From Candidatus Poseidoniaceae archaeon (GTDB taxonomy: Archaea > Thermoplasmatota > Poseidoniia > Poseidoniales > Poseidoniaceae): a stretch of 64,000 bases of DNA. The notes below the pieces were generated by a model. It had not been told where the DNA came from and did not search any database. It saw nothing but the letters and a program-made list of their open reading frames with translations. The stretch covers positions 9,920-73,919 of the forward strand of contig CBFIJH010000011.1 of assembly GCA_965662895.1 (NCBI GenBank), written 5' to 3'. This document shows positions 17,372 through 34,130 of this stretch, in pieces. How positions within the stretch are numbered: the first letter of the stretch is position 1; each line of letters begins with the position of its first letter. A program made the position numbers and the translations under genes.

Positions 17372-18962
17372 GATCTTTGTTGTAATGAAGTCCCCTATTT
17401 TCGCTTCGACTGTTCGCATCTTTTGCAACGAGAATTCCTACGAGAATCATGTTTCGTAATTCGACAATTTCTCGTGTAGGTAGGCTCGATTTCCAAATAA
17501 CATCGATTTCTTTTTCCAACAGTTGAAGTCTTCGAATGGCTCGTTGCAATCTAGAGAACCGTCTTGAAACTCCGACTTCAAATCGCATGGTTTGATTCAA
17601 GGCTGCACGATCGTGGGCTATTGGTCCGTGTTCTCGAAGCTTATTCAAACCATCAGAACGCCAGTTCGGAGGTGATGCATCCTCGGCATTGATTCCAGTT
17701 TCGATGATGTGGGATGAACATCGGTGGGCAAAAACTACGGCCTCGAGAAGGCTATTTGAAGCGAGTCTGTTGGCACCATGCATACCTGTGCATGCAACCT
17801 CTCCAATTGCGAAAAGACCGGGTACTGGCTTTGTTGAATTGTTGAGGATTGCTGAACCCACGTCATCCACTTCGATACCCCCTACGATGTAATGCGCTGC
17901 TGGCGCTACTGGGAGTGGGTCAATTCCAAGTTCGAGGCCGTCCCTACGTAATCGGTTTGAAATCATTGGAAAACGCTCGTTCAAGTGCTGTGTGTCCAAA
18001 TGTTCGGTAACGAGGTAAACATGTGCTGCACCTGACTCTGCACATCGCTGATCAATCGATCGAGCGACAACATCTCGAGTTGCCATCGAACCAAGTTTGG
18101 ATGCTTCCAGCGTGAATGAAAAGGGAGCAGGGTCATCTTTACCACTCAATTTCCAGTTCTCATAACCATCATGATCGAGGAGAACCGCTCCTTCGCCGCG
18201 CAATGCTTCCGTGATGAGAAAAGGACGCTCTCCATCAACCACAAGAGCGGTTGGGTGGAATTGCACAAATGCCATGTTAACCACAGAGGCCCCCGTTCTA
18301 TAGGCCATCGCTATTCCATCTCCGGTCGAGACGGAAGGGTTGGTGGTTTTTTCCCACAATTGGCCAGCTCCACCAGTGGCGAGTATGACTGCATCACTCT
18401 GGATGGTCATGACTTCATTGGTTTCCTGATCGAGTGCCCAAACGCCACATACGCCTTTTTCTGGTGATTCGTGCACGCGTTGGATGAGGTCGATGGCTAA
18501 TGTGTTGGGTCGCATGATAATTCGACGATGATTTCGTGCGGCAGTTGTAAGGGCGCGTTCGATTTCTTTTCCGGTTGCATCCTTGGCATGAAGGATACGT
18601 CTCGAAGTATGGCCTCCCTCTTGCGCAAGTTGGAATGCACCCTCATCATCCCGTTCAAATTCAACACCGATGGAGAGTAAATCCTCAATTCGTTCCCCCG
18701 CTTCTTCAACCACCATTCGGACAACCTCCTCGTCACATAAGCCATCGCCAGCATTGAGGGTGTCGTTGATGTGACCTTCAATCTCATCGAGATTCGTTTT
18801 ATCCAAAATTGCAGCGATGCCACCTTGCGCCCAGTTGGTCGAGGAATCCTTTGGCCGCTGTTTTGTGATGATTTCAACCTCAAAACCGTTGTTCGCTAAA
18901 CGCAAGGCAGCAAACAACCCCGCAATGCCTGTGCCGATGATGAGTGCACGAGGCATGGTCAC
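17352..18962 (-). CDS. nadB: L-aspartate oxidase
   Basis: GTGIAGL, STNWAQGGIAA, QFHPT, GMHGANRLASNSLLE, ENRGLHY. Confidence 0.95.
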   Translation of the reverse strand: MTMPRALIIGTGIAGLFAALRLANNGFEVEIITKQRPKDSSTNWAQGGIAAILDKTNLDEIEGHINDTLNAGDGLCDEEVVRMVVEEAGERIEDLLSIGVEFERDDEGAFQLAQEGGHTSRRILHAKDATGKEIERALTTAARNHRRIIMRPNTLAIDLIQRVHESPEKGVCGVWALDQETNEVMTIQSDAVILATGGAGQLWEKTTNPSVSTGDGIAMAYRTGASVVNMAFVQFHPTALVVDGERPFLITEALRGEGAVLLDHDGYENWKLSGKDDPAPFSFTLEASKLGSMATRDVVARSIDQRCAESGAAHVYLVTEHLDTQHLNERFPMISNRLRRDGLELGIDPLPVAPAAHYIVGGIEVDDVGSAILNNSTKPVPGLFAIGEVACTGMHGANRLASNSLLEAVVFAHRCSSHIIETGINAEDASPPNWRSDGLNKLREHGPIAHDRAALNQTMRFEVGVSRRFSRLQRAIRRLQLLEKEIDVIWKSSLPTREIVELRNMILVGILVAKDANSRSENRGLHYNKDLIEDEQ

Positions 18963-19920: not shown

Positions 19921-22900
19921 ATGTTTCTAAAAGCGTTGGAGATGGAAGATTTCAAATCATTTCGTGGCGAAGTCGTCATTCCTCTCGATCGTGGTTTTTC
20001 AGCAATTACTGGGCCAAACGGTTCAGGGAAGTCCAATTGTGGAGATGCCATTCAATTTGTTCTGGGGCCCAAATCAACGCGAACCATCCGTGCTCAGAAC
20101 ACAAAGCAACTCATTTTCAACGGTGCTGAAGGCTACAAACCTGCGCGTGGATGTGTTGTAACCCTCGTGTTTGGAAACCCCGTGTTGTCGAACGGTCGCC
20201 GAAGGCTTCCGATTGAGAACGATGAGGTTCGGATGACGAGAAAAATCCGTTTGACTGCTTCAGACAATGTTGTTTCAACATATTTACTCGATGGAGAAGA
20301 ATCATCGCAAAAATCGTTTCATCGGCTCCTGAATGCTGCGAACGCTCGCCCAGATGGGTACAACATTGTTCTCCAAGGCGACGTTACGGGTTTAGCACGA
20401 ATGACACCGATTGAGCGTCGAAAGGTTCTCGATGGTGTCGCGGGTGTCACGTCCTACGATGACGAACTTCGAAAAGCAAAGAAACAGAAGGACAGTGTTG
20501 ACTCTTATCTTGAACGGATTGGGATGCTCCAGGAGGAGCAGCAAGTACGCCTCAAGGAACTTGAGGAAGAACGGAAAGTCGCCATGAAGGCGCAATCCAT
20601 TACGGACGAACTCACCACCTCACGTTCACAACGCTACCAGGCCATGTTTGCGAGTTTAGGAATGGAATTGGAGCATCAAATTGCGGAACAATTACGCTTC
20701 GTTGAAGAGGCGACAGAACTTGAAGAGCAAGTCAAAAAGGGAAGCAAAAAATTGGTCGAACTTGATGACCGTATTGGAGATATACAGAAACAAATCGATG
20801 CCTTGCTTGGTGATGAAGGTGATGGCCTTTCAAAGGCAATTCATGATTTACGTGTCCAACTTGACCGCGATAAAGATCGAATTGAAGATGCCATCCAAGC
20901 CAATGTTGAGGACGAGCAAGAACGTGGGCATGTCCTTGAGCGATATCAAGAGGCTGAAGCGGCTCTCGCAGCTCTTCTTGAGGAAGCAAAAACCAGTCAG
21001 AGTCAAATGGAAGAAGCAGAGAAAATGCTTGAGGCCGCTCAGGTCGAAGAAGAAAAAGTCCGAGCACTACTCGAAGGTTCTGGCAAGAATCATGCTGAAC
21101 TCAATCGAGCATTAAGCGCTGCAATTGAACAACTTGAGAAAGCGAATCAAGCAGTCGCATCAGCACAATCGGATGTTGATCGGACTGCAGCGCAAGCAGA
21201 ACTTATCGAGGCGAATCTTGCAAAAGCACAGGAGACCGCTGAAGAGTCTCGACTTGAACTTGAAGAAAAAGAGGCCGAACTCAAAGAATTAACAGGAGGT
21301 AAGAAAGTCGACCGTTCATCGCTTGCAAAGAACATTCTCGAAGCGGAGCGTGCTGAATCCCGTCTCCTCGAAGAAGCGGGCGCAGTCGAACGAAAGATGA
21401 CGGAAACCGAAAGAAAACTACGTACAGCCCGAGCAGAATTGGAGAACAAATCGAATGCACGAGGCATGGCTGGTGGTGCAGCAGCAATTCTTGGTGCTCG
21501 AGATCGAGGCGAGCTGAAAGGCATTATTGGTACGATTGCTGAATTATGTGCTCCAATCGATGCCGAGCACGAAACTGCGTTAGCAACCGCATTCGGCGGT
21601 GCGATGACTTCGGTTGTCGTCGATTCTGACGAAGTTGCAGCCGAGGCAATACGGTGGCTTGCTCAAAGAAAGGCAGGACGTGCAACGTTTTTGCCACTGA
21701 ATAAACTCTCGACCAGCAGAGCAGGCGGCAAAGCGATGATGGTTGCTCGCAAGCCAGGCGTTATCGGATTTGCTTACGAATTACTCGAATACGACCCTCG
21801 AATCGATACCGCAATAAAATTCGCATTGCGCAACACGCTCATCGTCCAAAACATGGACATTGCCCGGCAAAACATGGGTGGTGTACGTCTTGTGACAATG
21901 CGTGGTGACGTTACAGAAGCTGGAGGCGCCATGGTCGGTGGTTCGAGGCTGAGAATGTCGGTCAGTTTTGGCGGTGGTATTGCCGGAGCCAAAGAGGTCG
22001 AACGATTGAGCTCGGAAATCGAGCGATTGCGCCTTATTTCAGATACGGTCTCTGCTGCATTAGCAGATGTCCGTAAAGAACAACAAACATTGCGTCAGCA
22101 AATCAATGAACTTGCAAACGAAGAAGGTGCCTTACGCAGAGAAACTTTGCGTGCCGAGGTTTCAACATTCAAGAAAGCACATTCGAAAAACATCGGCGTG
22201 GTTGAAACTCTGAAAGGAGATCTTCGTCGATTGGAAACATTGGCAAGTGCACAACTCGAATCGCTTGACGATGCTGAATCAAAAGTTGCCGATGCCGTTA
22301 TTGTTCGAACAAATGCGCAGACCGCTCTCGAAGATGCCAGCCCTCAACATCTCAAAGATCGCTTGCATGAGTGTACGGTTCAACGAACCCAAGCAGAAGG
22401 TATTCGTTCCAATGCTGAGGTTTCTCTCCGCTCAATTTCGGAACGCAAGAATCTACTTACTTCGACGGTAGGTGGCGAAAAGGATCGCTTAAACCAAATT
22501 GATGTTGCTGTTTCACAACGGGCAGAGCAAGCCAATAAACTCAAGCAAAGTGTGACTGAAAACGAAGCAATTCTTGCGGAAAAGGAAGCAGAGCGTGCTC
22601 AATTCCTCGAGGAGAACAAAGGTCTTGAGGACGAACGAATTGAACTTGTTGAAGAACGCGTAAGCCTTAACTCGACAATTACCCAAAAGGCAAATCAGGC
22701 TCGAAGTCATCGAAACCTGTCAACAGAACTCGAGCGAACGATTCAAGCGAAGCGCAAGGAACTTTACGATGTCGAAATGGAGATGGAGGCAATCGGAATT
22801 CAACCTGCTGAAGACGGAGTTGCACTTGATTCAGTTGCAGAAATCGATCGAAGAATTCGCCGTCTTGAACGACGTTTGGAGGACTTTGGAGCAGTCAACA

Positions 22901-23790
22901 TGCGAGCGATTGAGCAATACGATGCTGTTGAGCAGCGTTTGGAGGAAATGGAGGGCGACTTCAAGAAATTACAAGATCGAAAGAAGCATCTGGTTGATGT
23001 CGCTGAACGACTTGAAGAACAACGAAAGGTTAGGTTGATTCATGTCCTTGAGAAGGTGAATGAGAACTTCAAAAAGGTCTACAAATCTTTGAGTAACGGT
23101 GGCCGAGGTGAACTATACCTCGAAAACGAGGAAGAACCATTCAAGGGTGGCCTCGAGTTGTGGGCTCAACCAAAAGGTAAGTCGTCAAATGTTACTCGAC
23201 ATCAACTCTCTGGTGGTGAGCAATCCGTCGCTGCTCTTGCTCTGATTTTTGCAATTCAGGATTACGACCCAAGCCCATTTTACTACTTTGACGAAGTCGA
23301 CCAAAATCTCGACAGTGTAAACGCAGAGTGTATTGCAAAGATGTGTCGAGAGCGAAGTAAAGCGGCTCAATTCATCATGGTCACTCTTCGAAAGGTTTCC
23401 TTGCAACTTGCCGATCACCACATTGGAATTACACACGGTGGCGATGGATGCAGTCGTCGAATCATTGACTTCGATCAGGAACAAGCAATCGCACTTGGTG
23501 AACAAGCACTCAAAGAAGCAGAATCAGCAGTTGCCAAGAATACTCAGCGGGCAAAGGAAGAACGAGAAACGCTTGCAGAGATGCCTCGAGTACCGGATGC
23601 GCTCCCTGCACCGCAAAGCCTGGGCGGTCTGCTCAAGCATATGGACGATGACCAAAGTCTTGCTTCCCTCGCTGAGCGAACCGCAGAAACCAATGAAGAT
23701 ATTGAAGAACGAGCATCGCTTGTTGAATCTATTTCTGAAATAGAGTCAAAAGAAGTCATGGCCGAAGAACAAGTGGAACTTGAAGATTGA
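19921..23790 (+). CDS. smc: Chromosome segregation protein SMC
   Basis: GPNGSGKSN, long coiled coils, hinge GRATFLPLNK, LSGGEQS, FDEVD. Confidence 0.97.
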   Translation: MFLKALEMEDFKSFRGEVVIPLDRGFSAITGPNGSGKSNCGDAIQFVLGPKSTRTIRAQNTKQLIFNGAEGYKPARGCVVTLVFGNPVLSNGRRRLPIENDEVRMTRKIRLTASDNVVSTYLLDGEESSQKSFHRLLNAANARPDGYNIVLQGDVTGLARMTPIERRKVLDGVAGVTSYDDELRKAKKQKDSVDSYLERIGMLQEEQQVRLKELEEERKVAMKAQSITDELTTSRSQRYQAMFASLGMELEHQIAEQLRFVEEATELEEQVKKGSKKLVELDDRIGDIQKQIDALLGDEGDGLSKAIHDLRVQLDRDKDRIEDAIQANVEDEQERGHVLERYQEAEAALAALLEEAKTSQSQMEEAEKMLEAAQVEEEKVRALLEGSGKNHAELNRALSAAIEQLEKANQAVASAQSDVDRTAAQAELIEANLAKAQETAEESRLELEEKEAELKELTGGKKVDRSSLAKNILEAERAESRLLEEAGAVERKMTETERKLRTARAELENKSNARGMAGGAAAILGARDRGELKGIIGTIAELCAPIDAEHETALATAFGGAMTSVVVDSDEVAAEAIRWLAQRKAGRATFLPLNKLSTSRAGGKAMMVARKPGVIGFAYELLEYDPRIDTAIKFALRNTLIVQNMDIARQNMGGVRLVTMRGDVTEAGGAMVGGSRLRMSVSFGGGIAGAKEVERLSSEIERLRLISDTVSAALADVRKEQQTLRQQINELANEEGALRRETLRAEVSTFKKAHSKNIGVVETLKGDLRRLETLASAQLESLDDAESKVADAVIVRTNAQTALEDASPQHLKDRLHECTVQRTQAEGIRSNAEVSLRSISERKNLLTSTVGGEKDRLNQIDVAVSQRAEQANKLKQSVTENEAILAEKEAERAQFLEENKGLEDERIELVEERVSLNSTITQKANQARSHRNLSTELERTIQAKRKELYDVEMEMEAIGIQPAEDGVALDSVAEIDRRIRRLERRLEDFGAVNMRAIEQYDAVEQRLEEMEGDFKKLQDRKKHLVDVAERLEEQRKVRLIHVLEKVNENFKKVYKSLSNGGRGELYLENEEEPFKGGLELWAQPKGKSSNVTRHQLSGGEQSVAALALIFAIQDYDPSPFYYFDEVDQNLDSVNAECIAKMCRERSKAAQFIMVTLRKVSLQLADHHIGITHGGDGCSRRIIDFDQEQAIALGEQALKEAESAVAKNTQRAKEERETLAEMPRVPDALPAPQSLGGLLKHMDDDQSLASLAERTAETNEDIEERASLVESISEIESKEVMAEEQVELED

Positions 23791-23800
23791 GGTGAGATGG

Positions 23801-24973
23801 ATGGTTCAGCAAGGGCTCGATCAGTGGTTTTTGCGGCAAGACGTAATCGACCAACTTCTGCAAAGCGGGGACGATGATCTTGAAGGAATCAACGCTTATG
23901 CGGACCGAATCTTGATGATTGCTCAAACCGAAGAAGCAGAGCATCAAACGCTCGAAGATCCGTTCGATCGGAGTGTTGCTCTGGTCCTCTCGTTGGTTAA
24001 CAGTGAAGGTTTAGACGCATGGAACATCGATTTGACCTCCTTTTTACGGCAATTCATGAAACGGGTCAAGTCGCAAGCCAATCGTTTGGATTTGCCTGCA
24101 TGTGGACGCTTGATTCGGATGGCTTGGGAGGTTCTGCATTACCAAGCGGCTCATCTCTTTGATCGAATTCAATATCAAGATGCAGACGATGATTGGGATG
24201 CAAGCCTGGATTTTGGATGGGAGGCTGAGTACGATGACCATGAATTCCATTTCACCAATACAATCCTGCAAGGGGATGCTGACGAAGTTCTCGAGGATCT
24301 TTTTGATGAACGTGTTCGTCGTGATGAAGGACGTCCAGTGACGCTTGGTGAGTTGCTTTCCGCCCTCAAAGATGCAGCAGAAGATGCTGACGCCCTCAAA
24401 CTGCGAGAAAAGAATCGAATCGCTCATGCGATTGAAGTTGAAGAAATGGTCTCAAATGTAGGGGGGCGTATGCACAATGAAGATCTCGATGGTGACATTG
24501 AGCGATGTTGGAACGCATTACGCGAAACAACCCAAAAGATGAGTGTCAACAATGTTCCTTTGAAATCTGTCATTCAATCCCTCGTACCGATACTCGAAGC
24601 AACCTTTGGGGTTGTTCCAGAAGGTTATGATGACGACGCTCGGGTGAGTTCCTTCATTGCTGGCTTGTTCTTGACACACAAGGGTATGGCTTCCATTACC
24701 CAAGGCAATGAACTTGATGATGTGATTATGATTGAGGATTTGTGGCCGCATCTCGCAACGTTTGAAGAGGTTCTTGAAGCGACGTTGGAGGTAGAACGAG
24801 AAGCTCAGGTCGCTCGAGAGGATTCCAAAACAGGTTCAGTTTTGCACGCCGAGAGGCTCTTGGAGCGTGCAGAGAAGGCTCGCAAGGCTGAAGAAAAAGC
24901 CAAAATGAAGCTTGAAAAGGAACAACAGAAGGTTTCCGAAGAATTGGATGCCCATGAGTGGTTGGTAGAGTAG
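23801..24973 (+). CDS. scpA: Kleisin ScpA
   Basis: LDAWNIDL, RPVTLGELLSALK; between smc and scpB; GAGGTGA RBS. Confidence 0.85.
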   Translation: MVQQGLDQWFLRQDVIDQLLQSGDDDLEGINAYADRILMIAQTEEAEHQTLEDPFDRSVALVLSLVNSEGLDAWNIDLTSFLRQFMKRVKSQANRLDLPACGRLIRMAWEVLHYQAAHLFDRIQYQDADDDWDASLDFGWEAEYDDHEFHFTNTILQGDADEVLEDLFDERVRRDEGRPVTLGELLSALKDAAEDADALKLREKNRIAHAIEVEEMVSNVGGRMHNEDLDGDIERCWNALRETTQKMSVNNVPLKSVIQSLVPILEATFGVVPEGYDDDARVSSFIAGLFLTHKGMASITQGNELDDVIMIEDLWPHLATFEEVLEATLEVEREAQVAREDSKTGSVLHAERLLERAEKARKAEEKAKMKLEKEQQKVSEELDAHEWLVE

Positions 24974-24981
24974 GTGATGAA

Positions 24982-25578
24982 ATGTCTGAATTAGCCTTAG
25001 AAACACTTCTTGAAGCAACACTTTTTGGTTCTGGGAAGTCACTCTCTGTCAAAGATCTTTCAGAAGCCTTGGGTTATGAGGAGGATGAAGTCTCTGAAGC
25101 CCTTCTTTCACTCCAAGGTACGTTGAAACGTCGAAGAGGTGGCGCACTTCGTATTGTTGAGATTGGAGGCAAGTGGGCAATGGAGGTTCATTCGGGTGTT
25201 GCTGAACACCTACCAAAAGAAACCAAGACTGAAATGCCCAAAAAATTGCTGAAAGCAGCGGCATTAATCGCCTACCATCAACCAATGCCACAATCGAGGC
25301 TTGTCGAATTGCTCGGGCAGAAAGCCTACGATTACGTCCGTGAACTTTCTCAATATGGAATGATCATGCGACGCCGTGACGGAAATACGCGACGCTTGAC
25401 GACCACCCGCCGATTCTCCGAAGCATTTGGATGCCCACACACCGACTTGCGTAAAGTTCGGAAATGGTTCAGGGAGCAAGTTACTGAAGCGGGATTGTTC
25501 GATGGAATGGAATCTGAGGCGTTGAAAGATGTTGGTGAGGATGGGCTTATACAGTCGACGTTACCACTTGAAGAGTGA
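24982..25578 (+). CDS. scpB: ScpB (KITE subunit)
   Basis: LEATLF, ALIAYHQP, TTRRFSEAFG. Confidence 0.92.
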   Translation: MSELALETLLEATLFGSGKSLSVKDLSEALGYEEDEVSEALLSLQGTLKRRRGGALRIVEIGGKWAMEVHSGVAEHLPKETKTEMPKKLLKAAALIAYHQPMPQSRLVELLGQKAYDYVRELSQYGMIMRRRDGNTRRLTTTRRFSEAFGCPHTDLRKVRKWFREQVTEAGLFDGMESEALKDVGEDGLIQSTLPLEE

Positions 25579-26874
25579 TTATCTCCGCAAATCCTTGAGA
25601 ATTTCTACGACTCTTGTCTGCGTTTTTGGTCCTTCTTCGGAGATCAGTAGTTGAGCAACCTGTTCGATTTCTTCTCCTGTAGCGCCTGCACTCACTGCCA
25701 TGTTTTTCGCATGCAAGCGCATGTGTCCTTTTTGAATTCCACTCGTTGCTAGGGCGCGAAGCGCTCCAAGATTTTGTGCAAGTCCTGCTGCAGCCATGAC
25801 GGATGCAAGCTCTTGTGCGGACTCAACACCCAGAATCTCCAAATTTGCACGTGCTACTGGATGGACTTTTGATGCACCTCCAACGATGCCGACAGCCATT
25901 GGAGTTTCGATGGTTCCAACTAAATTTCCCTCCGCATCTGATTCCCAGTTGGTCATCGAGCCATACTTTCCTTGGCTATATGCAGCATACGCATGGCAAC
26001 CCGCTTCGACAGCTCGCCAGTCTTGTCCACACGCTACTGCGACCGCAGAAATTCCGTTCATGACGCCCTTGTTGTGTGTTGCAGCACGATACGGGTCTGC
26101 CATGGCAAAGTGATGCGCCTCGAGTATTCTCTGAATAATTTCCTCTCCGTCGGCTCGATCGCCTGTATTGCTGATTTCTTCAGGAGTAAACGTACCCGAT
26201 ACCCGAGCGAGACGTTGTGTGGCTAAGTTCGAGAGGATTCTCAACAATGAACGCCCATGTGTGATTCTTTCAAGTTCTGGAGCGAGGAGTTCAGCCATTG
26301 TGTTCACTGCATTTGCACCCATTGCATCTCTGCAATCAACGTGAATATGAACGATCAGCATTGGCCCAGATAGTGTCTCTATTGGGTGAGTTGTTATGTT
26401 CTTACATCCTCCTCCGAGGCGAATCATGGTGGAAGGTAAACTGTTTGCTAAGGCCATTAAGTCGTTTTTGTTTTCTTCGATGGCCTGAACTGCTTCCGCA
26501 TGGTTGGCGATGTCGAGAAGTTGAATCTGAGCAATCATGATTGGTTTGTCGTTGTTCGAGAAAAAGCCGCCGTGATTATGACAACGTTTTGCCATGTTCG
26601 AGGCTGCAGCCACAACACTCGACTCTTCAAGGCAAAATGGGACGACGTAATGCTTTCCGTCAAGTATGAAGTTGGTTGCAACTCCAACAGGAAGTGACAT
26701 GGTTCCGATGACGTTTTCAATCATACGATCTGCAGCAGATTCCTCCAAATCGCCAGATGCAGCCAAGGCAGCAACCTGGTCATCGTTGAGATTCGCAAGC
26801 CGGGCGATAGTTTCTCGACGTTGGTGAACATCGAGTTTGTAGAATCCTTTGAGACGGCTGTTGTCGACCGGCAT
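25579..26874 (-). CDS. hmgA: Class II (bacterial-type) HMG-CoA reductase
   Basis: ENVIG, EESSVVAAAS, DAMGANAVNT, RAATHNKG, GIQKGHMRLHA. Confidence 0.95.
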   Translation of the reverse strand: MPVDNSRLKGFYKLDVHQRRETIARLANLNDDQVAALAASGDLEESAADRMIENVIGTMSLPVGVATNFILDGKHYVVPFCLEESSVVAAASNMAKRCHNHGGFFSNNDKPIMIAQIQLLDIANHAEAVQAIEENKNDLMALANSLPSTMIRLGGGCKNITTHPIETLSGPMLIVHIHVDCRDAMGANAVNTMAELLAPELERITHGRSLLRILSNLATQRLARVSGTFTPEEISNTGDRADGEEIIQRILEAHHFAMADPYRAATHNKGVMNGISAVAVACGQDWRAVEAGCHAYAAYSQGKYGSMTNWESDAEGNLVGTIETPMAVGIVGGASKVHPVARANLEILGVESAQELASVMAAAGLAQNLGALRALATSGIQKGHMRLHAKNMAVSAGATGEEIEQVAQLLISEEGPKTQTRVVEILKDLRR

Positions 26875-26900
26875 ACGTTCTCCTCAAGTGTGGCTAGTTG

Positions 26901-26921
26901 GATTGGTTCCATGAACCAATC
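26901..26921. promoter_or_regulatory. Perfect 9-bp inverted repeat GATTGGTTC-cat-GAACCAATC upstream of hmgA
   Basis: Read directly from the sequence; 27-47 bp upstream of the hmgA ATG. Confidence 0.55.
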
Positions 26922-26930
26922 GGAAGAAAC

Positions 26931-27031
26931 TAACGGGTTTAACGCTTCAATTAACGCGTTACATTTGCGTTAAACATCCGTTAATTTGATTGATGCCTGG
27001 TTTACGGTGTTTTGATTAACGTCTCATAACA
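26931..27031. repeat. Phased symmetric array of TAACG/CGTTA motifs in a divergent intergenic region
   Basis: TAACG at 26931, 26940, 26952; CGTTA at 26957, 26968, 26979; TTACG 27002, TAACG 27017, TAACA 27027. Confidence 0.7.
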
Positions 27032-27090
27032 GGTTTGTCAAACACCTTTTGTTCGTGAAACATCATATACTTCCTCAAAGTTCTGCCCTT

Positions 27091-28806
27091 ATGCGTGGGG
27101 ACACAGTTGATTTTGGTTTTCCTTCAATGAGTGAAGATCCCTTTTCCTCTAGTCCCCTCGATAAAGATGAATTTGATTTGCTGGTTGGACGGCACGCAAT
27201 GTTTGAAGAGCTTGAGAGGAAGATATCGTTCAAATCTGCAGACAGAATTCTGATTGTGGGTGAGTTCGGATCCGGAAAAACTTCCTTTATGCAGTGCTTA
27301 GGTGAGCGGACAAACCTGCATCTGAGCATCGATAGGATTGCATTTTCAGAACCCGGTGTTGAATTGCTCAAAGATATGTATGCGCAATTGATCGACGGCT
27401 CGCCCCCTCACGATTATCAAAAATTGAGTCGAGATTTGCATCGTATGATTCACGACTCGAGACAAATGCTTCCACTGATTACAATTGATGCTGACATGAC
27501 AGATGTCTCTTCTTTGGAAGCATGCCTTCGTTCTTCACTGCACTTCTTTGAGCGCTTACCTGCACTGATTATTATCGCTATCAACCCGCGGCAACAGTCC
27601 CTCCTATCTGAACAATTGTTGCAGCGGTTTGAGTTACGCACAATGCCGAGTTTGGATATTGATGGGATCAAGGCATTAGTCGAGCGAAGAATCGCTAAAG
27701 TATCTGCACAACCCTACAAAATGTCGACCGATGATGCAACAAAACTGCTTCAATTAAGCAAGACCGGTCAGCCTGGTGCACTCATTAAGATTCTTCGAAA
27801 CGTTGTTTCTGGGAATTATGACAAACAATCCTCCTCATTGCCCTTACAACCCGAACCATTCGAACCTGAGGTAGAACAATTTCAATCCCCTTTACCGTCG
27901 CTTGCCGAAGATGATATTGAATCAGATTTGGATGTTGAGATGGATGAAACCCTCGATGAGGTGAACCAAGTGCCATGGGAAGAAACACCTGGAATGACCG
28001 AGGCGACAGGTTTTGACCTAGATTTTGAGCTTCTTGATGAGCCTGTTGAAGAACCAGTTGAAACACAAGAAGAGCCATCGTTTGAATCGAATGAAGCAAT
28101 GAGTGACGATGATTCCTATGTGACGCAGGACAGCCTACCGTTTGCAGGTGTTTTTGGTGGGCTGAGAGGTCGTGGAAAAATCGTCAACAACGAACTGGAT
28201 TCAACCCCTGAAGGTCAATTCAAGGCAACTGAAAAAGGGACGGCGTTCTGGTCGGCTGAAGAAGCGCTGGCAATTCCTGATGTTGAGGTCGTCGAAGAAG
28301 ATGAACCTCACATTGGAGAGGAATTTGAACCTGAAACTCAGAGGAGACTCGATCCTGAAGACTTGCAAGGACTGCAACCGCCAATCGATGCTTCAATTGA
28401 TACAAACGCAGTTGAGACCTTGTCACATCTTTTGGCTCAAATTCTCCAGCCCACAAAACATGGTGTCACAGGAAGCCAAGAACTCGTTGAACAACTCCGC
28501 GCACTATCAAGACCACGATTTACTCAAAAGGAAGAGCATACTCTGAGCATTGCTGTTTTGAGTTCCCTCACATCATCAGAATCGGTTGTGGTTGCAGAAG
28601 CCAAAAACCGAAACATCTCACCTTCAGACAAGGCGCTACTGGGACAGTTGTCGATAAAACGATCACGCCTTTCCCAAATTTGCAATCGTCTGCACAAAGC
28701 AGGAATCCTTCATGCCCGCATGGTCGGTCGTTCGCGAATGTTTGGTCTGACAAGGAGCGCCCTCGCCCAGTTGATTGCATGGGGCATCATTGGAGGTGAT
28801 GAATGA
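27091..28806 (+). CDS. AAA+/P-loop ATPase with long acidic linker and C-terminal winged helix-turn-helix
   Basis: Walker A GEFGSGKTS, atypical Walker B LITIDAD, LLQRF; E/D/P-rich middle region; IKRSRLSQICNRLHKAGILHARMVGRSRMFGL wHTH. Confidence 0.75.
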   Translation: MRGDTVDFGFPSMSEDPFSSSPLDKDEFDLLVGRHAMFEELERKISFKSADRILIVGEFGSGKTSFMQCLGERTNLHLSIDRIAFSEPGVELLKDMYAQLIDGSPPHDYQKLSRDLHRMIHDSRQMLPLITIDADMTDVSSLEACLRSSLHFFERLPALIIIAINPRQQSLLSEQLLQRFELRTMPSLDIDGIKALVERRIAKVSAQPYKMSTDDATKLLQLSKTGQPGALIKILRNVVSGNYDKQSSSLPLQPEPFEPEVEQFQSPLPSLAEDDIESDLDVEMDETLDEVNQVPWEETPGMTEATGFDLDFELLDEPVEEPVETQEEPSFESNEAMSDDDSYVTQDSLPFAGVFGGLRGRGKIVNNELDSTPEGQFKATEKGTAFWSAEEALAIPDVEVVEEDEPHIGEEFEPETQRRLDPEDLQGLQPPIDASIDTNAVETLSHLLAQILQPTKHGVTGSQELVEQLRALSRPRFTQKEEHTLSIAVLSSLTSSESVVVAEAKNRNISPSDKALLGQLSIKRSRLSQICNRLHKAGILHARMVGRSRMFGLTRSALAQLIAWGIIGGDE

Positions 28807-29855
28807 TGACATGGTCTGTGAGTTGGTCGTGGCAGTCACCCTCAAGAATCAGTGCAATAGAATCTGTAAGTGAACATTTTTGTGTGGCGTATGGGCTTGA
28901 ACTGGCTCTCTTCAATGAATCAAATGAACTTCAATGGGAACGAAGTATGCCGTTCAAAGTTCATTCCATATGCAGCGCAGATGGCCAAATCGGGGTGCTT
29001 GCTGCACATGCGTTCTATCTACTGAATACTGTTGATGGATCAATGGTCCATGAGGGCAGGTCAAGTCCAGGAGGATTTACGCATCTATTGAATCGTCCAG
29101 GTGGTGGATGGGTTTTGGCTGGCCGTGATGGTAATTTGCATCTTTTTGATGCGAGCGGAATTGGAATACGTCGCATTCAATCCGGTAATGTACGTCGCTT
29201 GATTGGATGGCTGGACCGTGAGCACTTGCTTTGGCAAGATGCCAGTGGTGTCGTTTATTGTGGTCAAATTGCTCAACAAGACAAACGAAGAGTCGTTGAT
29301 TCCACGGTATGGAGTTGGGTTTCTCAACTTACTGATGGACGTATACTGTTGCAATCAGCAGACGGACAACTTTGGGATGGTATTCCTCACCCGTATGGTT
29401 GGGATTCACTCGAACGAATTGAGATTGAATCGCTGGAACCGCTTGTTGCCACCCGGGTCGGAGACGGCTGGTGGGTTTTGGGTATTGAGGGGCATCTCGA
29501 TCATATGAGTTCAGGCGGCGAAGATGCACGAATTGGTGAAGGAATGGATCTCGGTGATCTTTTGATTCGACTCGGGACAAATTCGATGATAACCTGTCGT
29601 CGTGATGGACTGATTCGAAGATGGGTCGCACCCCATCTTGCTGAACAACAACGTCGTCACCGACAGAGAGAGGCTGCAGATGCAAAACTTGCACGATCTT
29701 GGGACGAACGTCGCCAACTCTTCCAACGAGCCCTTGCTGCAGAAGACGAAGGACGATTGTCCAGAGCTGTTGAACTCTATGAGGCGTTGGGCAGAAAGGA
29801 GGATGTCCAGCGACTTCTTCGAAGGCAAAAAGGAGGTGATTCAACTGAATCCTAA
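28803..29855 (+). CDS. Beta-propeller-like (WD40/PQQ-type) protein with C-terminal TPR-like helices
   Basis: Trp-rich repeats (AGRDGNLHLFD, CRRDGLIRRW); AEDEGRLSRAVELYEALGR; 4-bp overlap with the upstream gene. Confidence 0.6.
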   Translation: MMTWSVSWSWQSPSRISAIESVSEHFCVAYGLELALFNESNELQWERSMPFKVHSICSADGQIGVLAAHAFYLLNTVDGSMVHEGRSSPGGFTHLLNRPGGGWVLAGRDGNLHLFDASGIGIRRIQSGNVRRLIGWLDREHLLWQDASGVVYCGQIAQQDKRRVVDSTVWSWVSQLTDGRILLQSADGQLWDGIPHPYGWDSLERIEIESLEPLVATRVGDGWWVLGIEGHLDHMSSGGEDARIGEGMDLGDLLIRLGTNSMITCRRDGLIRRWVAPHLAEQQRRHRQREAADAKLARSWDERRQLFQRALAAEDEGRLSRAVELYEALGRKEDVQRLLRRQKGGDSTES

Positions 29856-30138
29856 TCAGACTCTAACCATTGAGCGTGTCAATCATTATCTTTCAATCAC
29901 GAAACAAGCAAGAGCAAAGGCAACACCAATGGCATCAACCCCGAATGAGGAGTTGATGCTCAAAACATTGCTCTCAATGGCGGACGATTACTCGAATGAT
30001 GCTCAATATTTCCTTGATCAAGGCGATCTAATCAGAGCATTTGGAGCGATAAATTACGCCCATGCTTGGATTGATGCAGGGGTGAAACTAAGGCTTCTGG
30101 ATGGCCATGGCGATGACGTTCTTTTCACGCTGCCATAA
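29845..30138 (+). CDS. DUF357 family protein
   Basis: DAQYFLDQGDLIRAFGAINYAHAWIDAG; probable CTG start 6 nt after GGAGGTGA. Confidence 0.8.
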   Translation: MNPNQTLTIERVNHYLSITKQARAKATPMASTPNEELMLKTLLSMADDYSNDAQYFLDQGDLIRAFGAINYAHAWIDAGVKLRLLDGHGDDVLFTLP

Positions 30139-30538
30139 AACTGACTTCAACCGTCGGTTCAATGTCAGTTACAAGATTGTTAATTGCATCAACTTTGTTC
30201 AAGATTTCTTTTGCTTGTTTTCTGGCTTTGCTGACAAAAGGTTGGATTGTTTGTTCGAGGGCCATTCGTAATCTGTAGACGTGGGCAGGCCGGCCACGTG
30301 AGGGCTCGGAACGAGGAGCGTAGTGCACGAGATTCATTTCACGCAATTCAGAAATTGCCATACTCACATCAGGTTGACGGATATTGCAACGTTCCTGCAA
30401 TTGTTTCGATGTTGAAGCACCATGTTTGTGCAGGCAAAGCAGAACGCTAGCAGTATTCACGTTTGCTCCGAGTTGAACAAGTCTTTGTCGTAGTTCGTGG
30501 TATTGATTTTGCATGTCTGACGTTGATTCTTCTGGCAT
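30125..30538 (-). CDS. Archaeal wHTH transcriptional regulator (TrmB/MarR-like)
   Basis: TSKQLQERCNIRQPDVSMAISEL...GRPAHVYRL; TATA-like TTTTATAT about 25-30 nt upstream. Confidence 0.85.
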   Translation of the reverse strand: MPEESTSDMQNQYHELRQRLVQLGANVNTASVLLCLHKHGASTSKQLQERCNIRQPDVSMAISELREMNLVHYAPRSEPSRGRPAHVYRLRMALEQTIQPFVSKARKQAKEILNKVDAINNLVTDIEPTVEVSFMAA

Positions 30539-30543
30539 ATATG

Positions 30544-30570
30544 AGAATATATATTGTAGAATATATAAAA
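30544..30570 (-). promoter_or_regulatory. TATA box plus 10-bp direct repeat (AGAATATATA x2) at the regulator promoter
   Basis: Copies at 30544-30553 and 30558-30567; the minus strand reads TTTTATATATTCTacaaTATATATTCT just before the ATG. Confidence 0.55.
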
Positions 30571-30629
30571 CGTCCACCGACGATTAATCGCAAAGACTTG
30601 ACAATGTGGTGTCGGATTATTTGGATTCT

Positions 30630-31004
30630 CTATAGACCATTGACAAGGCGTATCTTTTTGCCTTGAACAATTTCCAAAACTCCAAGTCCTGAATCAAGGA
30701 CCCGGCGCTTCATGTTCGCATCGACGGTCAGTACAGGAATGTTCCTTTGTTTGGCGACTTCCAACAATGCATCGTCAGTGTGCATTTCAGGATATTCAAC
30801 CATGGTTGATCGCTGGAGTAAGAGGTCAAGTATGAGCTTCTTGCCGTGAGGACGGTTTGCATCGAGTTCTTCCAACTCTTCAAGTACCAAATCAAGGAGG
30901 ATGAAGTGAGGGGGGCCAACGACATTCGATAGGGCGACGTCGATGTTGAACGAACCATCAACGAGTGCAACCCAGCCGCAGGCGTCTATGAGCACGTTGC
31001 CCAA
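30630..31004 (-). CDS. PIN-domain protein (Fcf1/Utp24-like)
   Basis: VLIDAC, VLEEL, HTDDALL, VLTVD; typical position downstream of aIF2-gamma. Confidence 0.85.
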   Translation of the reverse strand: MGNVLIDACGWVALVDGSFNIDVALSNVVGPPHFILLDLVLEELEELDANRPHGKKLILDLLLQRSTMVEYPEMHTDDALLEVAKQRNIPVLTVDANMKRRVLDSGLGVLEIVQGKKIRLVNGL

Positions 31005-31013
31005 GAAGTCACC

Positions 31014-32252
31014 TCACTGAATTGTTCCGTGACCGATAAGTCGCCATCGTGCACCAACTCGCCGTGACAGAGAGACACGTTGTCCTTGATCAGCACATAT
31101 AGGAAGTCGAAGTTCCAGATTTGCCTTACCTTTGTCAACACCTCTCACAATGCCAACGGAAGTCGAAGTTGCAACGTTCACCATCAACATCTCATTGTTT
31201 CGAAGTGGATGAATCTTCTCTGGTTGCTCGCCTTCACCAGCAACCATGTTCTTCATCAAGTGTATTTCAATCGCACATTTTGTACGAACTTCAGGTAAAT
31301 CACCTTTCTTCGCAAGAACTTGCCCAGACAGGTTGTCTGCAGTTGTAATCGACGGATCGAGGAGTGTTCCAAAACCACACAATCCTCCAGCAGCCATTTC
31401 ATCTCTCTTTCCACCACCACCTTGCATGCTTGTGATGGTCGTATGAATCGGTTCCCAGTGTGACTTGTTTCCTTTCTCGATTTTTCGACCAGGACCAATG
31501 ATGATTTCATCACCTTCTCGGAAGGTCCCTTCAACGATCGAACCGCCGATAACCCCTCCACTTAATTTTGAAGGCCGTGTCCCTGGTCGGTTGACGTCAA
31601 ATGAACGGGCGATGTGCATGACAGCCCGCTCATCTGAATCCCTATCGGGTGTTGGAATTGTCTCCTGAATCGCCTCGATGAGGACATCGAGATTGACATC
31701 GTGGTGTGCTGAAACAGGAATGATTGGGGCATCTTCAGCGATGGAACCATTGAGGAATGTTTTGATCTCGTTGTAGGATTCCATGGCACGTTCTCTCGTC
31801 ACCAAGTCGATTTTGTTCTGAACGATGACGATGTTCTTGATTCCTGCGATTTCCAAGGCCATCAGGTGCTCACGTGTTTGGGGTTGTGGACATTTTTCGT
31901 TTGCTGCAACCATCAACATTGCTCCATCCATGATGGATGCACCTGTGATCATAATCGCCATCAGTGTCTCGTGCCCAGGAGCATCGACAAAGGATACGAC
32001 GCGTTGAAGTTCAGATTCAACATCATCTCCACCTTCAGGGCGGCGACCTGTTGCATAGTACTTGCCAGAATCAGTTTTGTAAAATGCAGTGTCTGCATAT
32101 CCGAGTTTGATTGAGATGCCACGACGACGTTCTTCCGAATGCGTGTCTGTCCAGACGCCTGAGAGGGCTTGTGTAAGGGTCGTTTTACCGTGATCGACGT
32201 GGCCGACGAGGCCAATGTTCACTTCAGGTTGGGATGGAAGCGTTCGTGCCAT
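31014..32252 (-). CDS. eif2g: Translation initiation factor aIF2 gamma subunit
   Basis: QPEVNIGLVGHVDHGKTT, DAPGHE, QNKID, RWRLIGHG. Confidence 0.98.
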   Translation of the reverse strand: MARTLPSQPEVNIGLVGHVDHGKTTLTQALSGVWTDTHSEERRRGISIKLGYADTAFYKTDSGKYYATGRRPEGGDDVESELQRVVSFVDAPGHETLMAIMITGASIMDGAMLMVAANEKCPQPQTREHLMALEIAGIKNIVIVQNKIDLVTRERAMESYNEIKTFLNGSIAEDAPIIPVSAHHDVNLDVLIEAIQETIPTPDRDSDERAVMHIARSFDVNRPGTRPSKLSGGVIGGSIVEGTFREGDEIIIGPGRKIEKGNKSHWEPIHTTITSMQGGGGKRDEMAAGGLCGFGTLLDPSITTADNLSGQVLAKKGDLPEVRTKCAIEIHLMKNMVAGEGEQPEKIHPLRNNEMLMVNVATSTSVGIVRGVDKGKANLELRLPICADQGQRVSLSRRVGARWRLIGHGTIQ

Positions 32253-32294
32253 GCTTCCATTCCTCCTTGTTCACCGATTCAACCCTCTCGGGTT

Positions 32295-32810
32295 TCACTC
32301 CGCTGCAGCTTCTTCCTCACCGAGCAATTTGTCGAGGCCAATGTTTCCAGCATCAACAACTTTGAGATTGATTTGACGCGTATCTTGTGTCACCGTGTTT
32401 CCACGGAATACACGTCGCTTACGCATACCTTCTGGCTTGTATCGGAAACGCTTCTTTTCGCCTTTCTTTGTCTTTGAGACGAGATTGTGTCCCTTGAAAC
32501 CAGTTGAAGCAGTGACGAGGATTGCTTGGCGGGAACCACCTTCAAGATCTCGACGCATTGGAGTTCCGGTTTTATCGGATCCACCTGTAATCTCGAGTTT
32601 GTAACCAGTCAGTGTTGACTCTCCTTCGCCAACGAAGATACCATCGATGACATCACCGATTTTCTTACCGAGCAATTGCGCATGGTTGTTGCCGGAAATA
32701 ATCGTCTTGTAGGACGGTGAATAGGTCTTCTCCTTACCGTTCTTGGTGGTACGGGTCAACTTGGTTGTGGTATCGTTGACCACTGCAACAAATGAATTTC
32801 CATCAGCCAT
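32295..32810 (-). CDS. rps6e: 30S ribosomal protein S6e
   Basis: GKKIGDVIDG, LEITGGSDKTGTPMR, GMRKRRVFRGN, QINLKV. Confidence 0.95.
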   Translation of the reverse strand: MADGNSFVAVVNDTTTKLTRTTKNGKEKTYSPSYKTIISGNNHAQLLGKKIGDVIDGIFVGEGESTLTGYKLEITGGSDKTGTPMRRDLEGGSRQAILVTASTGFKGHNLVSKTKKGEKKRFRYKPEGMRKRRVFRGNTVTQDTRQINLKVVDAGNIGLDKLLGEEEAAAE

Positions 32811-32877
32811 GAAGCATTCCTCTAGCAACCTAGCGACAAACGACCCCTATTTAGCCTCACCGCATGCTATTTGTTCG

Positions 32878-34062
32878 TCAGCGCTTCAGTTTCTTTGCAA
32901 CTCGGCCTTCAATCCGTGCTGCAACATCCACAGGGAGAGCATGAGGCATGGAGATGTGAGTTGTTCGCCCTCTGCCTTCACCGATTGTATCCACACGCGT
33001 TGCGATGATGTTCAGGGCTTCGATTTGCTTCAAGAATTTCCAAATGGTTGTATGACTGCGGGGTTTAATCTCGTACTCTTCACAAATAACCGCGTAGATG
33101 GACTCAACATCTTTGCTTGTCATGAATTCTGCTTTTCGCAATCGCCGACAAATTCCGAGCAAAACAAGCATTGCGTGACCCGATAATTCGTCAAGGACGT
33201 CCTCAGGCATCACTTGAGGAACATCTCTTGCTTTGGTTTGGACGTGTTCAGGCATGATGCTTTTCTGACCATCCGATTCGGCATGCTCGACAGCAGCCCC
33301 AAGCAGTTCAATGACTTGTCGAGCATCTCCAGACGGAGCAGCAGAGGTTGCGATAAGTCTCAAGATATCCTCGTTCCATGATTTGGGGTTCAGTGCCTGC
33401 TCCGCACGCTGACGTGCAATGGCAAGGAGCCCTTTCATGTCGTAAGGTGGGATAGGAATGTGATTGGTGTGACCAAATCGGGAAATGACGGCATTTTCGA
33501 GGACGTCAAGAACCTGCTCTTGGCTGATAAGGATGAGTGAAAGCGTTCCACTACCTTCTTGATCTTCATCAATTCGCAGCAGCTGGTAAATGAGATCGTT
33601 CCCCGATTTCCGTAGCAGATGATCGACTTCGTCCAAAACCACAATCAAATGGCGTCCATTGCTTTTCAGCATCTTTCTGAGACTACCCAACAATTCTCCC
33701 ATTGAAAGCCCGCGGTCGGGGTGGCCAGGATCGAGCGACTGAACAATGCGTTGTGCGACACGAACGTTTGTTGTTGCGTTTCGACAATTGATGTGAACGC
33801 TTTGAAGGGGGCGTTTGTTTCGCAGATGATATCGGATATCGCGACAAAACGTTCGGGCTAGAAGCGTCTTTCCGCTCCCGACTGGTCCAGTGATGACGAC
33901 ATTTGAGCTCCCGTTCGGATGAGCAATTGAATGGAATTTTGCTGCAAGCGTTTCTTGAATTGCCTCACGACCAACCATCACTTCGGGAATGTAATCGAAG
34001 TCAAGTGGGTCTGGATTCAAAAGAATAAACCCAGAACCAATTCGGTCAAGATAGTCGCTCAT
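32878..34062 (-). CDS. cdc6: Orc1/Cdc6 replication initiation protein
   Basis: LDFDYIP, GPVGSGKT, VLDEVD, GDARQ, C-terminal wHTH with GRGRT. Confidence 0.93.
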   Translation of the reverse strand: MSDYLDRIGSGFILLNPDPLDFDYIPEVMVGREAIQETLAAKFHSIAHPNGSSNVVITGPVGSGKTLLARTFCRDIRYHLRNKRPLQSVHINCRNATTNVRVAQRIVQSLDPGHPDRGLSMGELLGSLRKMLKSNGRHLIVVLDEVDHLLRKSGNDLIYQLLRIDEDQEGSGTLSLILISQEQVLDVLENAVISRFGHTNHIPIPPYDMKGLLAIARQRAEQALNPKSWNEDILRLIATSAAPSGDARQVIELLGAAVEHAESDGQKSIMPEHVQTKARDVPQVMPEDVLDELSGHAMLVLLGICRRLRKAEFMTSKDVESIYAVICEEYEIKPRSHTTIWKFLKQIEALNIIATRVDTIGEGRGRTTHISMPHALPVDVAARIEGRVAKKLKR

Positions 34063-34130
34063 GCTGTGTACATCTTGACGCCAACCGTTCTTGAACACTC
34101 GCTCGTCCTCGAACGAAAACGAGTCAAACT

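Follow-up and report, generated by a model that had tools for sequence, protein, structure and literature searches.

The window analysed here, a stretch of 64,000 nucleotides from contig CBFIJH010000011.1 of a Candidatus Poseidoniaceae archaeon, contains an array of short DNA sites in the intergenic region between two divergently transcribed genes. On the minus strand is hmgA (25579-26874), which encodes a class II HMG-CoA reductase. On the plus strand, across 216 bp, is gene 1 (27091-28806), whose 571 aa product has a degenerate AAA+ module, an acidic linker, and a winged helix of the ArsR type. Gene 1 is followed on the same strand by gene 2 (28803-29855), encoding a Trp-rich protein of 350 aa that is specific to the order Poseidoniales, and by gene 3, which encodes a DUF357 protein (arCOG01224) and ends at 30138, its start being uncertain between an ATG at 29803 and a GTG at 29836. 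An earlier reading, made from the letters without database searches (the sequence-only reading), described three tightly coupled genes, and this is the case. Gene 1 terminates in GAATGA and the ATG of gene 2 is at 28803, giving an ATGA overlap indicative of translational coupling, and the end of gene 2 at 29855 overlaps the gene 3 frame. The corresponding junctions in relatives are a 0-4 nt gap or overlap. That reading, which put the genes between smc-scpAB and cdc6, missed hmgA as the divergent partner of gene 1 across the array and, with hmgA overlooked, it also missed the plain reading of the array as an operator for autoregulation.

A symmetric motif array upstream of gene 1 had been noted from the sequence and is indeed present, as seven TAACG/CGTTA sites forming nested inverted repeats centred on the palindrome TAACGCGTTA (26952-26961). 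The pentamer sites are at 26931, 26940, 26952, and 27017 in the forward orientation and at 26957, 26968, and 26979 in the reverse orientation, about one helical turn apart. Three forward hexamers (CTAACG at 26930 and TTAACG at 26939 and 26951) and three reverse hexamers (CGTTAC at 26957 and CGTTAA at 26968 and 26979) make up the core array (26930-26984), which has no AT-rich unwinding stretch and consists of 5-6 bp half-sites around a GC-containing palindrome. Further towards gene 1 is a distal pair on the plus strand (27016-27031), TTAACG at 27016-27021 and ATAACA at 27026-27031, which are 10 bp apart. In the intergenic alignment of the Poseidoniales family f1 this pair is kept as GATTAACgt.TcaTAAC.

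There is no overall excess of TTAACG in the window, with 15 matches on both strands against a chance expectation of 18.07 (standard deviation 4.40); five of the 15 are within the 83 bp from 26939 to 27021. The whole genome contains 443 hexamer sites in 1,864,816 bp, and clusters of at least three sites with gaps of 60 bp or less occur just twice, the array being one of them. The other (C3:157094-157114) is made up of an overlapping CGTTAACG and one further site within a coding sequence, and is not a true cluster. Site pairs 9-12 bp apart are found elsewhere in the genome at chance frequency. In G039, a complete relative of 1.6 Mb from another family, the only TTAACG cluster is at the orthologous place. 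An RNA element was also considered for the array and was rejected because its single-strand fold is no better than that of shuffled sequences (z -0.99) and because a search of 26500-27400 against Rfam gave no match.

The association of the array with gene 1 holds across the order. The same layout, with hmgA on the minus strand, then the array, then gene 1 on the plus strand, is present in 36 of 36 Poseidoniales loci, including those with gene 1 orthologues at ~20-30% identity; a check for orthologues lacking the array upstream found it in every one of the loci read. These genomes are kin, and counts across loci are not independent events. The gap between hmgA and gene 1 is from 216 to 370 bp, and the 36 gaps together contain 245 TAACG/CGTTA sites where 5.5 are expected from the flanks, at least four pentamer sites being present in 35 of them. 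Spacing is similarly constrained among these related, non-independent loci: of 117 spacings between neighbours in the same orientation, 83 fall in the range of 10-12 bp, 59 of them at exactly 11 bp. In alignments of the gaps the sites are conserved islands amid otherwise diverged intergenic DNA.

Gene 1 itself was present in 41 of 41 relatives, and in a second draw its profile identified it in all 63 Poseidoniales genomes (41/41 in family f1 and 22/22 in family f3). Among 237 other Thermoplasmatota genomes, 41 had only short matches to the profile (E 1e-3 to 1.5e-8), nearly all of them to the P-loop region and a few to the winged helix, and none of these genomes had a match covering both domains. 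A search of 1.84 billion cluster representatives matched only 133 clusters, and homologues carry the public names 'hypothetical protein' or, automatically assigned, 'ExeA-like ATPase'. The gene 1 family is confined to the Poseidoniales and is found in every genome of the order searched.

A 20-base core pattern of the array was scanned against one genome each of 185,579 species, returning at least 119 stretches. Of the 80 loci listed, 71 have gene 1 within 600 bp, two end at the locus edge but show hmgA, and the other seven are isolated hits in bacterial records that lack gene 1, roughly as many as chance would give. Three loci in which the array accompanies gene 1 (L173, L200, and L205) are in metagenome-assembled genomes labelled Salipiger, Verrucomicrobiales, and Rhodobiaceae; these contigs have most likely been mis-binned and come from Poseidoniales. 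In the sister family, which belongs to the same class, the gene 1 profile found nothing in seven of eight genomes and a P-loop-only match (E 7.9e-4) in the eighth. There, hmgA is in other, unrelated contexts with no array in the three loci read, and the array pattern search of five genomes gave match counts no higher than the control and no array-like cluster. The array thus travels with gene 1 and not with hmgA as such. One sister-family contig end (G066:C71:22-72) has tandem 18-nt units containing TAACGAACGG, in a layout unrelated to that of the array.

No description of the gene 1 family or of the array was found in the open-access literature text, supplements not being covered. A defence-system origin of the operon was rejected, as PADLOC gave only P-loop-level matches for gene 1 (E 0.0047 or worse) and none for genes 2 and 3; the distribution of gene 1, which all searched genomes of the order have in fixed synteny, is neither patchy nor mobile and also argues against membership of a defence system. 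A viral origin was likewise rejected, with nothing better than 2.4e-4 in PHROGs and no relative in viral contigs. Array and gene 1 form an order-defining, strongly conserved, and so far unannotated protein-DNA module.

The AAA+ and winged-helix architecture proposed for gene 1 holds in profile-profile comparisons and in comparisons of profiles with the Protein Data Bank (PDB). The N-terminal module (residues 1-250; 27091-27840, plus strand) is of the AAA_16 or Orc1/Cdc6-like kind. Its Walker A motif GEFGSGKTS (residues 57-65; 27259-27285) and its atypical Walker B motif ITIDAD (residues 130-135; 27478-27495) are where they had been placed from the sequence, and a lid motif G.P...R.LR is at 27766-27801. 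A profile of this region from 41 sequences aligned with one of eight Poseidoniales Cdc6 proteins in hhalign at 96.5% probability (E 9.1e-10) over 213 columns including the lid. In comparisons with individual AAA+ proteins encoded in this genome, Cdc6 (207 columns, E 3.7e-5) and RFC (187 columns, E 2.8e-4) aligned over the greatest length, a ranking that is partly confounded by short P-loop matches such as one to an ABC ATPase. The alignment to Cdc6 demonstrates homology as AAA+ proteins and not orthology, and against solved structures the module resembles a generic AAA+ protein. With Pfam at E up to 1, AAA_16 was matched by 41/41 members (best 6e-9; the window copy at 0.015, with 16.3 bits against a cut-off of 32.6), AAA_22 by 31/41, nSTAND1 by 30/41 (best 2e-5), ORC-CDC6-like by 11/41, and NACHT by 8/41, these NTPase matches being mostly below the curated cut-offs. 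Relatives of the module outside the family were sought with a profile, which returned family fragments and one unnamed AAA_16/nSTAND protein (E 2.2e-5).

The residues associated with hydrolysis are not conserved in the family. At the position of the Walker A lysine, 34 of 41 members have Arg, and seven, including the window copy, have Lys. The Walker B Asp (D133) is present in all 41, and the residue after it is hydrophobic in 39, Ser in one, His in one, and never Glu. The Arg-finger-like LQRF seen in the sequence-only reading is present in the window copy (residues 177-180); since Arg is kept at the Cdc6 arginine-finger position in just 10 of 41 members, it is a local feature and not one of the family. 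The lid Arg (R236) is kept in 38/41. A different protein of the same genome, of 517 aa (G000:C14 ~16108-17664; L122:609-2165, minus strand), has an N-terminal Crp-like helix-turn-helix followed by AAA_16 (E 4.5e-13), the opposite domain order to that of gene 1.

The long acidic, low-complexity linker proposed for gene 1 is there (residues 251-485; 27841-28545, plus strand), with 235 aa that include 60 D/E against 12 K/R. Over the 41 members it is from 170 to 382 aa long and carries two conserved short motifs. The first, F.GL..R.[RK] (28150-28179), contains an invariant Arg (R361) and a Leu (L358) conserved in at least 90%; the second is a near-invariant Trp (W387; 28249-28251), also conserved in at least 90%. 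In two genomes of genus g7, gene 1 is present as two overlapping open reading frames (ORFs) (G039:C1:614607-616686, equivalent to L021:6587-8711, and G037:C1:277899-279882). In both, these are an AAA+ part and a part with linker plus winged helix, of 454 and 275 aa in L021, and in G031, of the same genus, there is one 656-aa frame. The two-ORF form could be natural, with the gene split in its linker, or else come from a frameshift in the assembly.

A C-terminal winged helix had also been recognised in the sequence, and it can now be described as ArsR/SmtB-like (residues 486-571, 86 residues; 28546-28803, plus strand). Its profile from 25 sequences matches PDB entries at E 6e-5 to 1e-3, among them 3f6v (E 6.3e-5), 3pqj (BigR, 9.8e-5), 4k2e (5.3e-4), and 5znx and 3jth (~7e-4), and both the helix-turn-helix and the wing match the ArsR/SmtB family profile. 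Pfam MarR_2 was matched by 9/41 members (best 3.5e-4). The Cdc6 profile, in contrast, was aligned to the C-terminal domain with an hhalign probability of ~1%, and Pfam Cdc6_C was matched by only 5/41 members, at E 0.014 or worse. The invariant positions of the domain are S-P-S-D, R.RLSQ, G, L, G, and R. Its putative recognition helix reads R.RLSQI, with R.RLSQ invariant in 25/25 sequences, and is as invariant as the DNA site.

Gene 1 is likely to start at the ATG at 27091 and not at the TTG at 27049, because database gene calls are 566-577 aa long and a conserved TATA-like TCATATAC (27063-27070) is ~24 nt upstream of the ATG; such a distance suggests a leaderless or short-leader mRNA. A variant site CGTGAAAC (27054-27061) abuts the TATA-like element, making 27054-27070 on the plus strand a candidate gene 1 promoter with an overlapping weak operator, and CGTGAAACATC repeats CGTTAAACATC of the array at 91%. 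The promoter-proximal element is kept in f1 as cgTgAAA.aTcAtATAC. In f3 the same place has GCGTGA..GCGTGAAtATTAT, and the sites GCGTTAA, GCGTGAG, and GCGTGAA occur there at spacings of 22 and 11 bp. Both families have variant sites directly beside the TATA-like element of gene 1, an arrangement that points to autorepression. On the other side, hmgA is the divergent neighbour of gene 1 in 36/36 loci, and the leftmost array site in f1 falls where an hmgA TATA box would be expected. Co-regulation of hmgA is possible but less secure, as the core array in f3 is ~110-170 bp from the hmgA start, and ~150 bp from the start of gene 1. Between the hmgA start and the array is also a perfect 9-nt inverted repeat, GATTGGTTC/GAACCAATC (26901-26921), of which the right arm alone, within CATGAACCAATCGGAA, is conserved across f1; it may be an hmgA promoter or 5' untranslated region element. 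The hmgA product matches Pfam HMG-CoA_red at E 4.6e-108, and by its NCBIfam score (TIGR00532, 416.9 bits, cut-off 259.95) it belongs to the NAD-dependent 'degradative' type of class II.

Taken together, these features favour a reading to which a probability of about 0.5 is given: gene 1 would be a site-specific DNA-binding protein of the Poseidoniales whose oligomers bind the TTAACG array as an operator and control its own operon, and possibly hmgA. Gene 1 probably binds its own array. The array is assigned to it as an operator because it is the only such cluster in the genome, because gene 1 alone among DNA-binding genes is always next to it, and because site and putative recognition helix are equally invariant. 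As the half-sites are phased and both direct and inverted, a multimer is called for. The ArsR-type winged helix would read the TTAACG half-sites, and the AAA+ module, without its hydrolysis residues, would act as a nucleotide-binding oligomerisation or switch unit and not as a motor. Through the proposed oligomerisation of this module, several winged helices could load cooperatively on five to nine half-sites that, at intervals of one helical turn, would all look to the same side of the DNA. The weaker GCGTGA-type sites over the B recognition element and TATA box would then let the assembly repress its own operon of gene 1, gene 2 where present, and DUF357, and hmgA could be co-regulated through the leftmost site of the f1 array at its expected TATA box. 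The acidic linker may compete with DNA, as autoinhibition, and its two conserved motifs probably recruit a partner.

Several considerations weigh against this. Another factor could bind the array and, as hmgA is adjacent in 36/36 loci, the assignment of the array to gene 1 depends on a single sister-family contrast and on the promoter-proximal sites. In f3, direct occlusion of the promoter depends on the weaker proximal sites. The change of the Walker A Lys to Arg in 34/41 members may abolish nucleotide binding altogether. A gene that is never lost and that has a motif-bearing linker of 170-382 aa seems over-built for a regulator with one target, which hints at a further function. Kinship among the genomes also means that the supporting counts are not independent.

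A rival reading is that of a chromosomal landmark, with gene 1 binding the array, autoregulation being incidental, and the linker recruiting SMC-ScpAB loading, segregation, or replication factors. The logic would be that of ParB-parS and archaeal SegB, in which a unique cluster of sites beside the gene of its binding protein serves autoregulation and chromosome organisation. On the plus strand of the window, smc (19921-23790), scpA (23780-24973), and scpB (24958-25578) run up to hmgA, and smc-scpA-scpB adjoins hmgA in seven of eight annotated loci; the cdc6 gene for Orc1/Cdc6 (32878-34098, minus strand) is 5.8 kb from the array and is no more than ~6 kb away in all eight. One site cluster per genome, in two genomes of two families, would suit a landmark, as would a gene never lost in 41/41 and 63/63 genomes and a degenerate ATPase with a long linker whose Arg is invariant and whose Trp is near-invariant. 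Motif 1 of that linker is kept in two (L020 and L027, not L028) of the three gene 2-lacking loci read, and a Trp is near the expected place in all three. However, in L020 (G035:C3) smc-scpA-scpB is not next to hmgA, so the link between smc and the array locus is not universal, and synteny inside a single order may reflect common descent rather than function. Gene 1 has no homology to ParB, SegB, or kleisin-loading factors, it has an AAA+ and not a CTPase fold, and its operon contains no ParA/SegA-type partner; moreover, the sites abutting its TATA-like element argue at least for autoregulation. A landmark is therefore possible, if unlikely. It is distinctly doubtful that a hydrolysis-dead Orc1/Cdc6-like oligomer on the single array recruits SMC-ScpAB or replication factors together with Cdc6, as a functional analogue of ParB-parS made from unrelated parts; the link to SMC suggested by the sequence-only reading stands in seven of the eight annotated loci and is weakened by L020. 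The same reading had considered a lineage-specific initiator, and that the array is all or part of a replication origin, with gene 1 as initiator or origin accessory factor, is very improbable. It is true that, along its full length, the AAA+ module comes closest to Orc1/Cdc6 and that, as with Orc1/Cdc6 and an oriC made of origin recognition boxes (ORBs), an AAA+/winged-helix gene stands next to intergenic inverted and direct repeats near smc, scpAB, and cdc6. The window cdc6 has flanking gaps of 32 bp and 49 bp, thus no upstream intergenic space of its own, with no repeats seen beside it, and no ORB-like repeats were found beside either cdc6 of the genome. Yet, apart from the AAA+ homology, four of six defining features tested are missing. 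The family lacks the Walker A Lys with Walker B Asp-Glu, a conserved Arg finger at the SRF position, and a Cdc6_C domain directly after the lid, where the winged helix is of ArsR type instead, and the array is away from cdc6 and made up of 6 bp half-sites, not of long ORB elements. The core array has no stretch for unwinding and a second cdc6 is found elsewhere in the genome. In the single contig of G039 (1,598,520 bp), GC, AT, RY, and MK skews and gene orientation were computed. The array is at 614 kb, and no extremum coincides with it (GC skew 428/716 kb, AT skew 343/1175 kb, gene orientation 185/940 kb), which is weak evidence against an origin because the measures disagree with each other.

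Instead of gene 1, a different transcription factor could use the array as its operator for hmgA, the gene 1 operon, or both, with gene 1 acting elsewhere. The intergenic region is shared with hmgA in all 36 loci, the leftmost f1 site may overlap the hmgA TATA box, and in the genus of the window a small gene for an MreA/TFE-like winged helix is found 3' of the operon (30125-30577, minus strand). This small gene matches the MreA family below the cut-off (77 bits against 100) and also TFE-alpha and MarR-like models. It is not at the locus in L020, L027, and L028, where PIN_9 abuts DUF357. The sister-family results, with three hmgA loci lacking an array and a five-genome pattern search no better than its control, also speak against another factor, as does the uniqueness of the array, expected for a dedicated local regulator, beside the one DNA-binding gene that is always adjacent. 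Another factor is thus improbable. The sequence-only reading had also raised a split STAND protein, in which gene 1 is the NTPase with an effector winged helix and gene 2 a detached repeat sensor that gates oligomerisation by ligand. The AAA_16, nSTAND1, and NACHT matches point this way, as do the coupling of gene 2 to gene 1, directly after which it is always found, and weak TPR-like matches at the gene 2 C-terminus. Gene 2 is Trp-rich, as had been stated (15 W in 350 aa), and the propeller ending in TPR-like helices that was also read into it is a putative fold: the protein has no Pfam, NCBIfam, or PDB sequence match and no significant internal repeats (E 0.019 or worse); neither it nor an 87%-identical homologue is in the ESM Atlas. 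It is an optional member of the operon, present in 31/41 genomes. In nine of the 10 genomes without a match DUF357 comes straight after gene 1, these nine being from family f3, and in the tenth (G003) gene 1 is at contig ends. Against a split STAND system, most of the STAND-type matches are marginal or below the Pfam cut-offs, the conserved module ends at about residue 250 and leaves no room for the winged-helix and arm part of a nucleotide-binding oligomerisation domain (NOD), and gene 1 has no repeats, the only repeat-like candidate being the separate and optional gene 2. The proposal is accordingly weak, and quite improbable. The reading of gene 1 as the regulator that binds its own array remains the preferred one.

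Among known systems, the module appears to work most like Orc1-2 and those AAA+/STAND regulators whose oligomers assemble on arrays of short boxes. In STAND activators of the MalT/LAL type, an AAA_16-class NTPase drives oligomerisation and helix-turn-helix domains bind arrays of short, asymmetric, direct or inverted boxes. Those proteins are bacterial, with a LuxR-type helix-turn-helix, sensor repeats in the same chain, a full NOD with its winged-helix and arm part, and several target promoters. Gene 1 differs in its marginal AAA_16 and nSTAND matches and in having its candidate sensor, gene 2, as a separate and optional protein. ArsR/SmtB repressors (3f6v, BigR 3pqj, and HlyU 4k2e/3jth) resemble the C-terminal 50-60 residues of gene 1 in helix-turn-helix plus wing, and the match covers the LSQ segment of gene 1, which has SQ opposite it in both of the ArsR alignments shown. 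ArsR proteins, however, are dimers of ~100-150 aa with sensing sites and have neither AAA+ module nor linker. Orc1-2 of the Sulfolobales is reported to be a non-initiator paralogue of Orc1/Cdc6 that regulates transcription in the DNA damage response (PMC6061795, PMC9738581). It shares with gene 1 an Orc1/Cdc6-kind AAA+ module joined to a winged helix and, as proposed for gene 1, promoter binding instead of origin firing. Orc1-2 has the canonical order of AAA+, initiator-specific motif, and Cdc6-type winged helix without a linker, and a global regulon. Gene 1, in contrast, has an ArsR-type winged helix after 170-382 aa of acidic linker, degenerate Walker A and B motifs with no conserved Arg finger, and a single site cluster per genome. 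With four defining features absent, gene 1 is not a member of the Orc1/Cdc6 family; its ArsR-type winged helix and gene 3, as DUF357, are the only parts of the system that pass as members of a known family. The open-access literature text searched, without supplements, has no description of a protein that joins a degenerate AAA+ module to an ArsR winged helix through a long acidic linker carrying conserved motifs and is accompanied by a phased array unique in its genome.

In the surface ocean, the Poseidoniales (marine group II) rank among the most abundant archaea. To our knowledge none has been cultured, and we know of almost nothing on how they regulate their genes or on the biology of their chromosomes. 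The array and gene 1 are a candidate protein-DNA pair that could be tested in vitro without culture, with a 6 bp site, an array of ~110 bp, and a winged helix of 86 residues. Gene 1 is a signature gene: all searched Poseidoniales genomes have it, and no genome outside the order does. It shows an Orc1/Cdc6-like AAA+ fold put to a further use, its catalytic motifs dead, its DNA-binding domain exchanged for another, and a long acidic linker in between. If hmgA is under its control, it may offer a way into the regulation of HMG-CoA reductase, which carries out the committed step in the synthesis of archaeal membrane lipids. Should the array be a landmark, it would bear on what directs archaeal SMC or the replication machinery to particular places on the chromosome.

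The identification of gene 3 as DUF357 is secure (PF04010, 66.9 bits against a cut-off of 29.4). It is present in 40/41 genomes and, wherever it can be placed, directly follows gene 1 or gene 2. DUF357 is pan-archaeal, and Table 1 of PMC6393860 gives DUF555 and a cytidylyltransferase of the TagD type as its usual partners. A search of 151 Thermoplasmatota genomes found no DUF555, and in the sister family DUF357 is beside the large subunit of exonuclease VII, a context without clue to gene 1. With its partners differing elsewhere, the place of DUF357 in this operon is specific to the order.

Beyond the operon, the small winged-helix gene at 30125-30577 is followed on the minus strand by genes for PIN_9, aIF2-gamma, ribosomal protein S6e, Orc1/Cdc6, and a diphthamide synthesis protein. 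In L020, where smc-scpA-scpB is not adjacent, citrate synthase, a GDPD phosphodiesterase, and an MFS/ATG22 transporter stand upstream of hmgA. Lineages differ in the orientation of the block of PIN_9, aIF2-gamma, S6e, and cdc6, which is inverted when window 30630-34098 is set against L017:9732-13154 and L024:9885-13276. In L017, L019, and L024, cdc6 comes directly after DUF357 on the same strand, with gaps of 108-160 bp, while in the genus of the window it is the distal gene.

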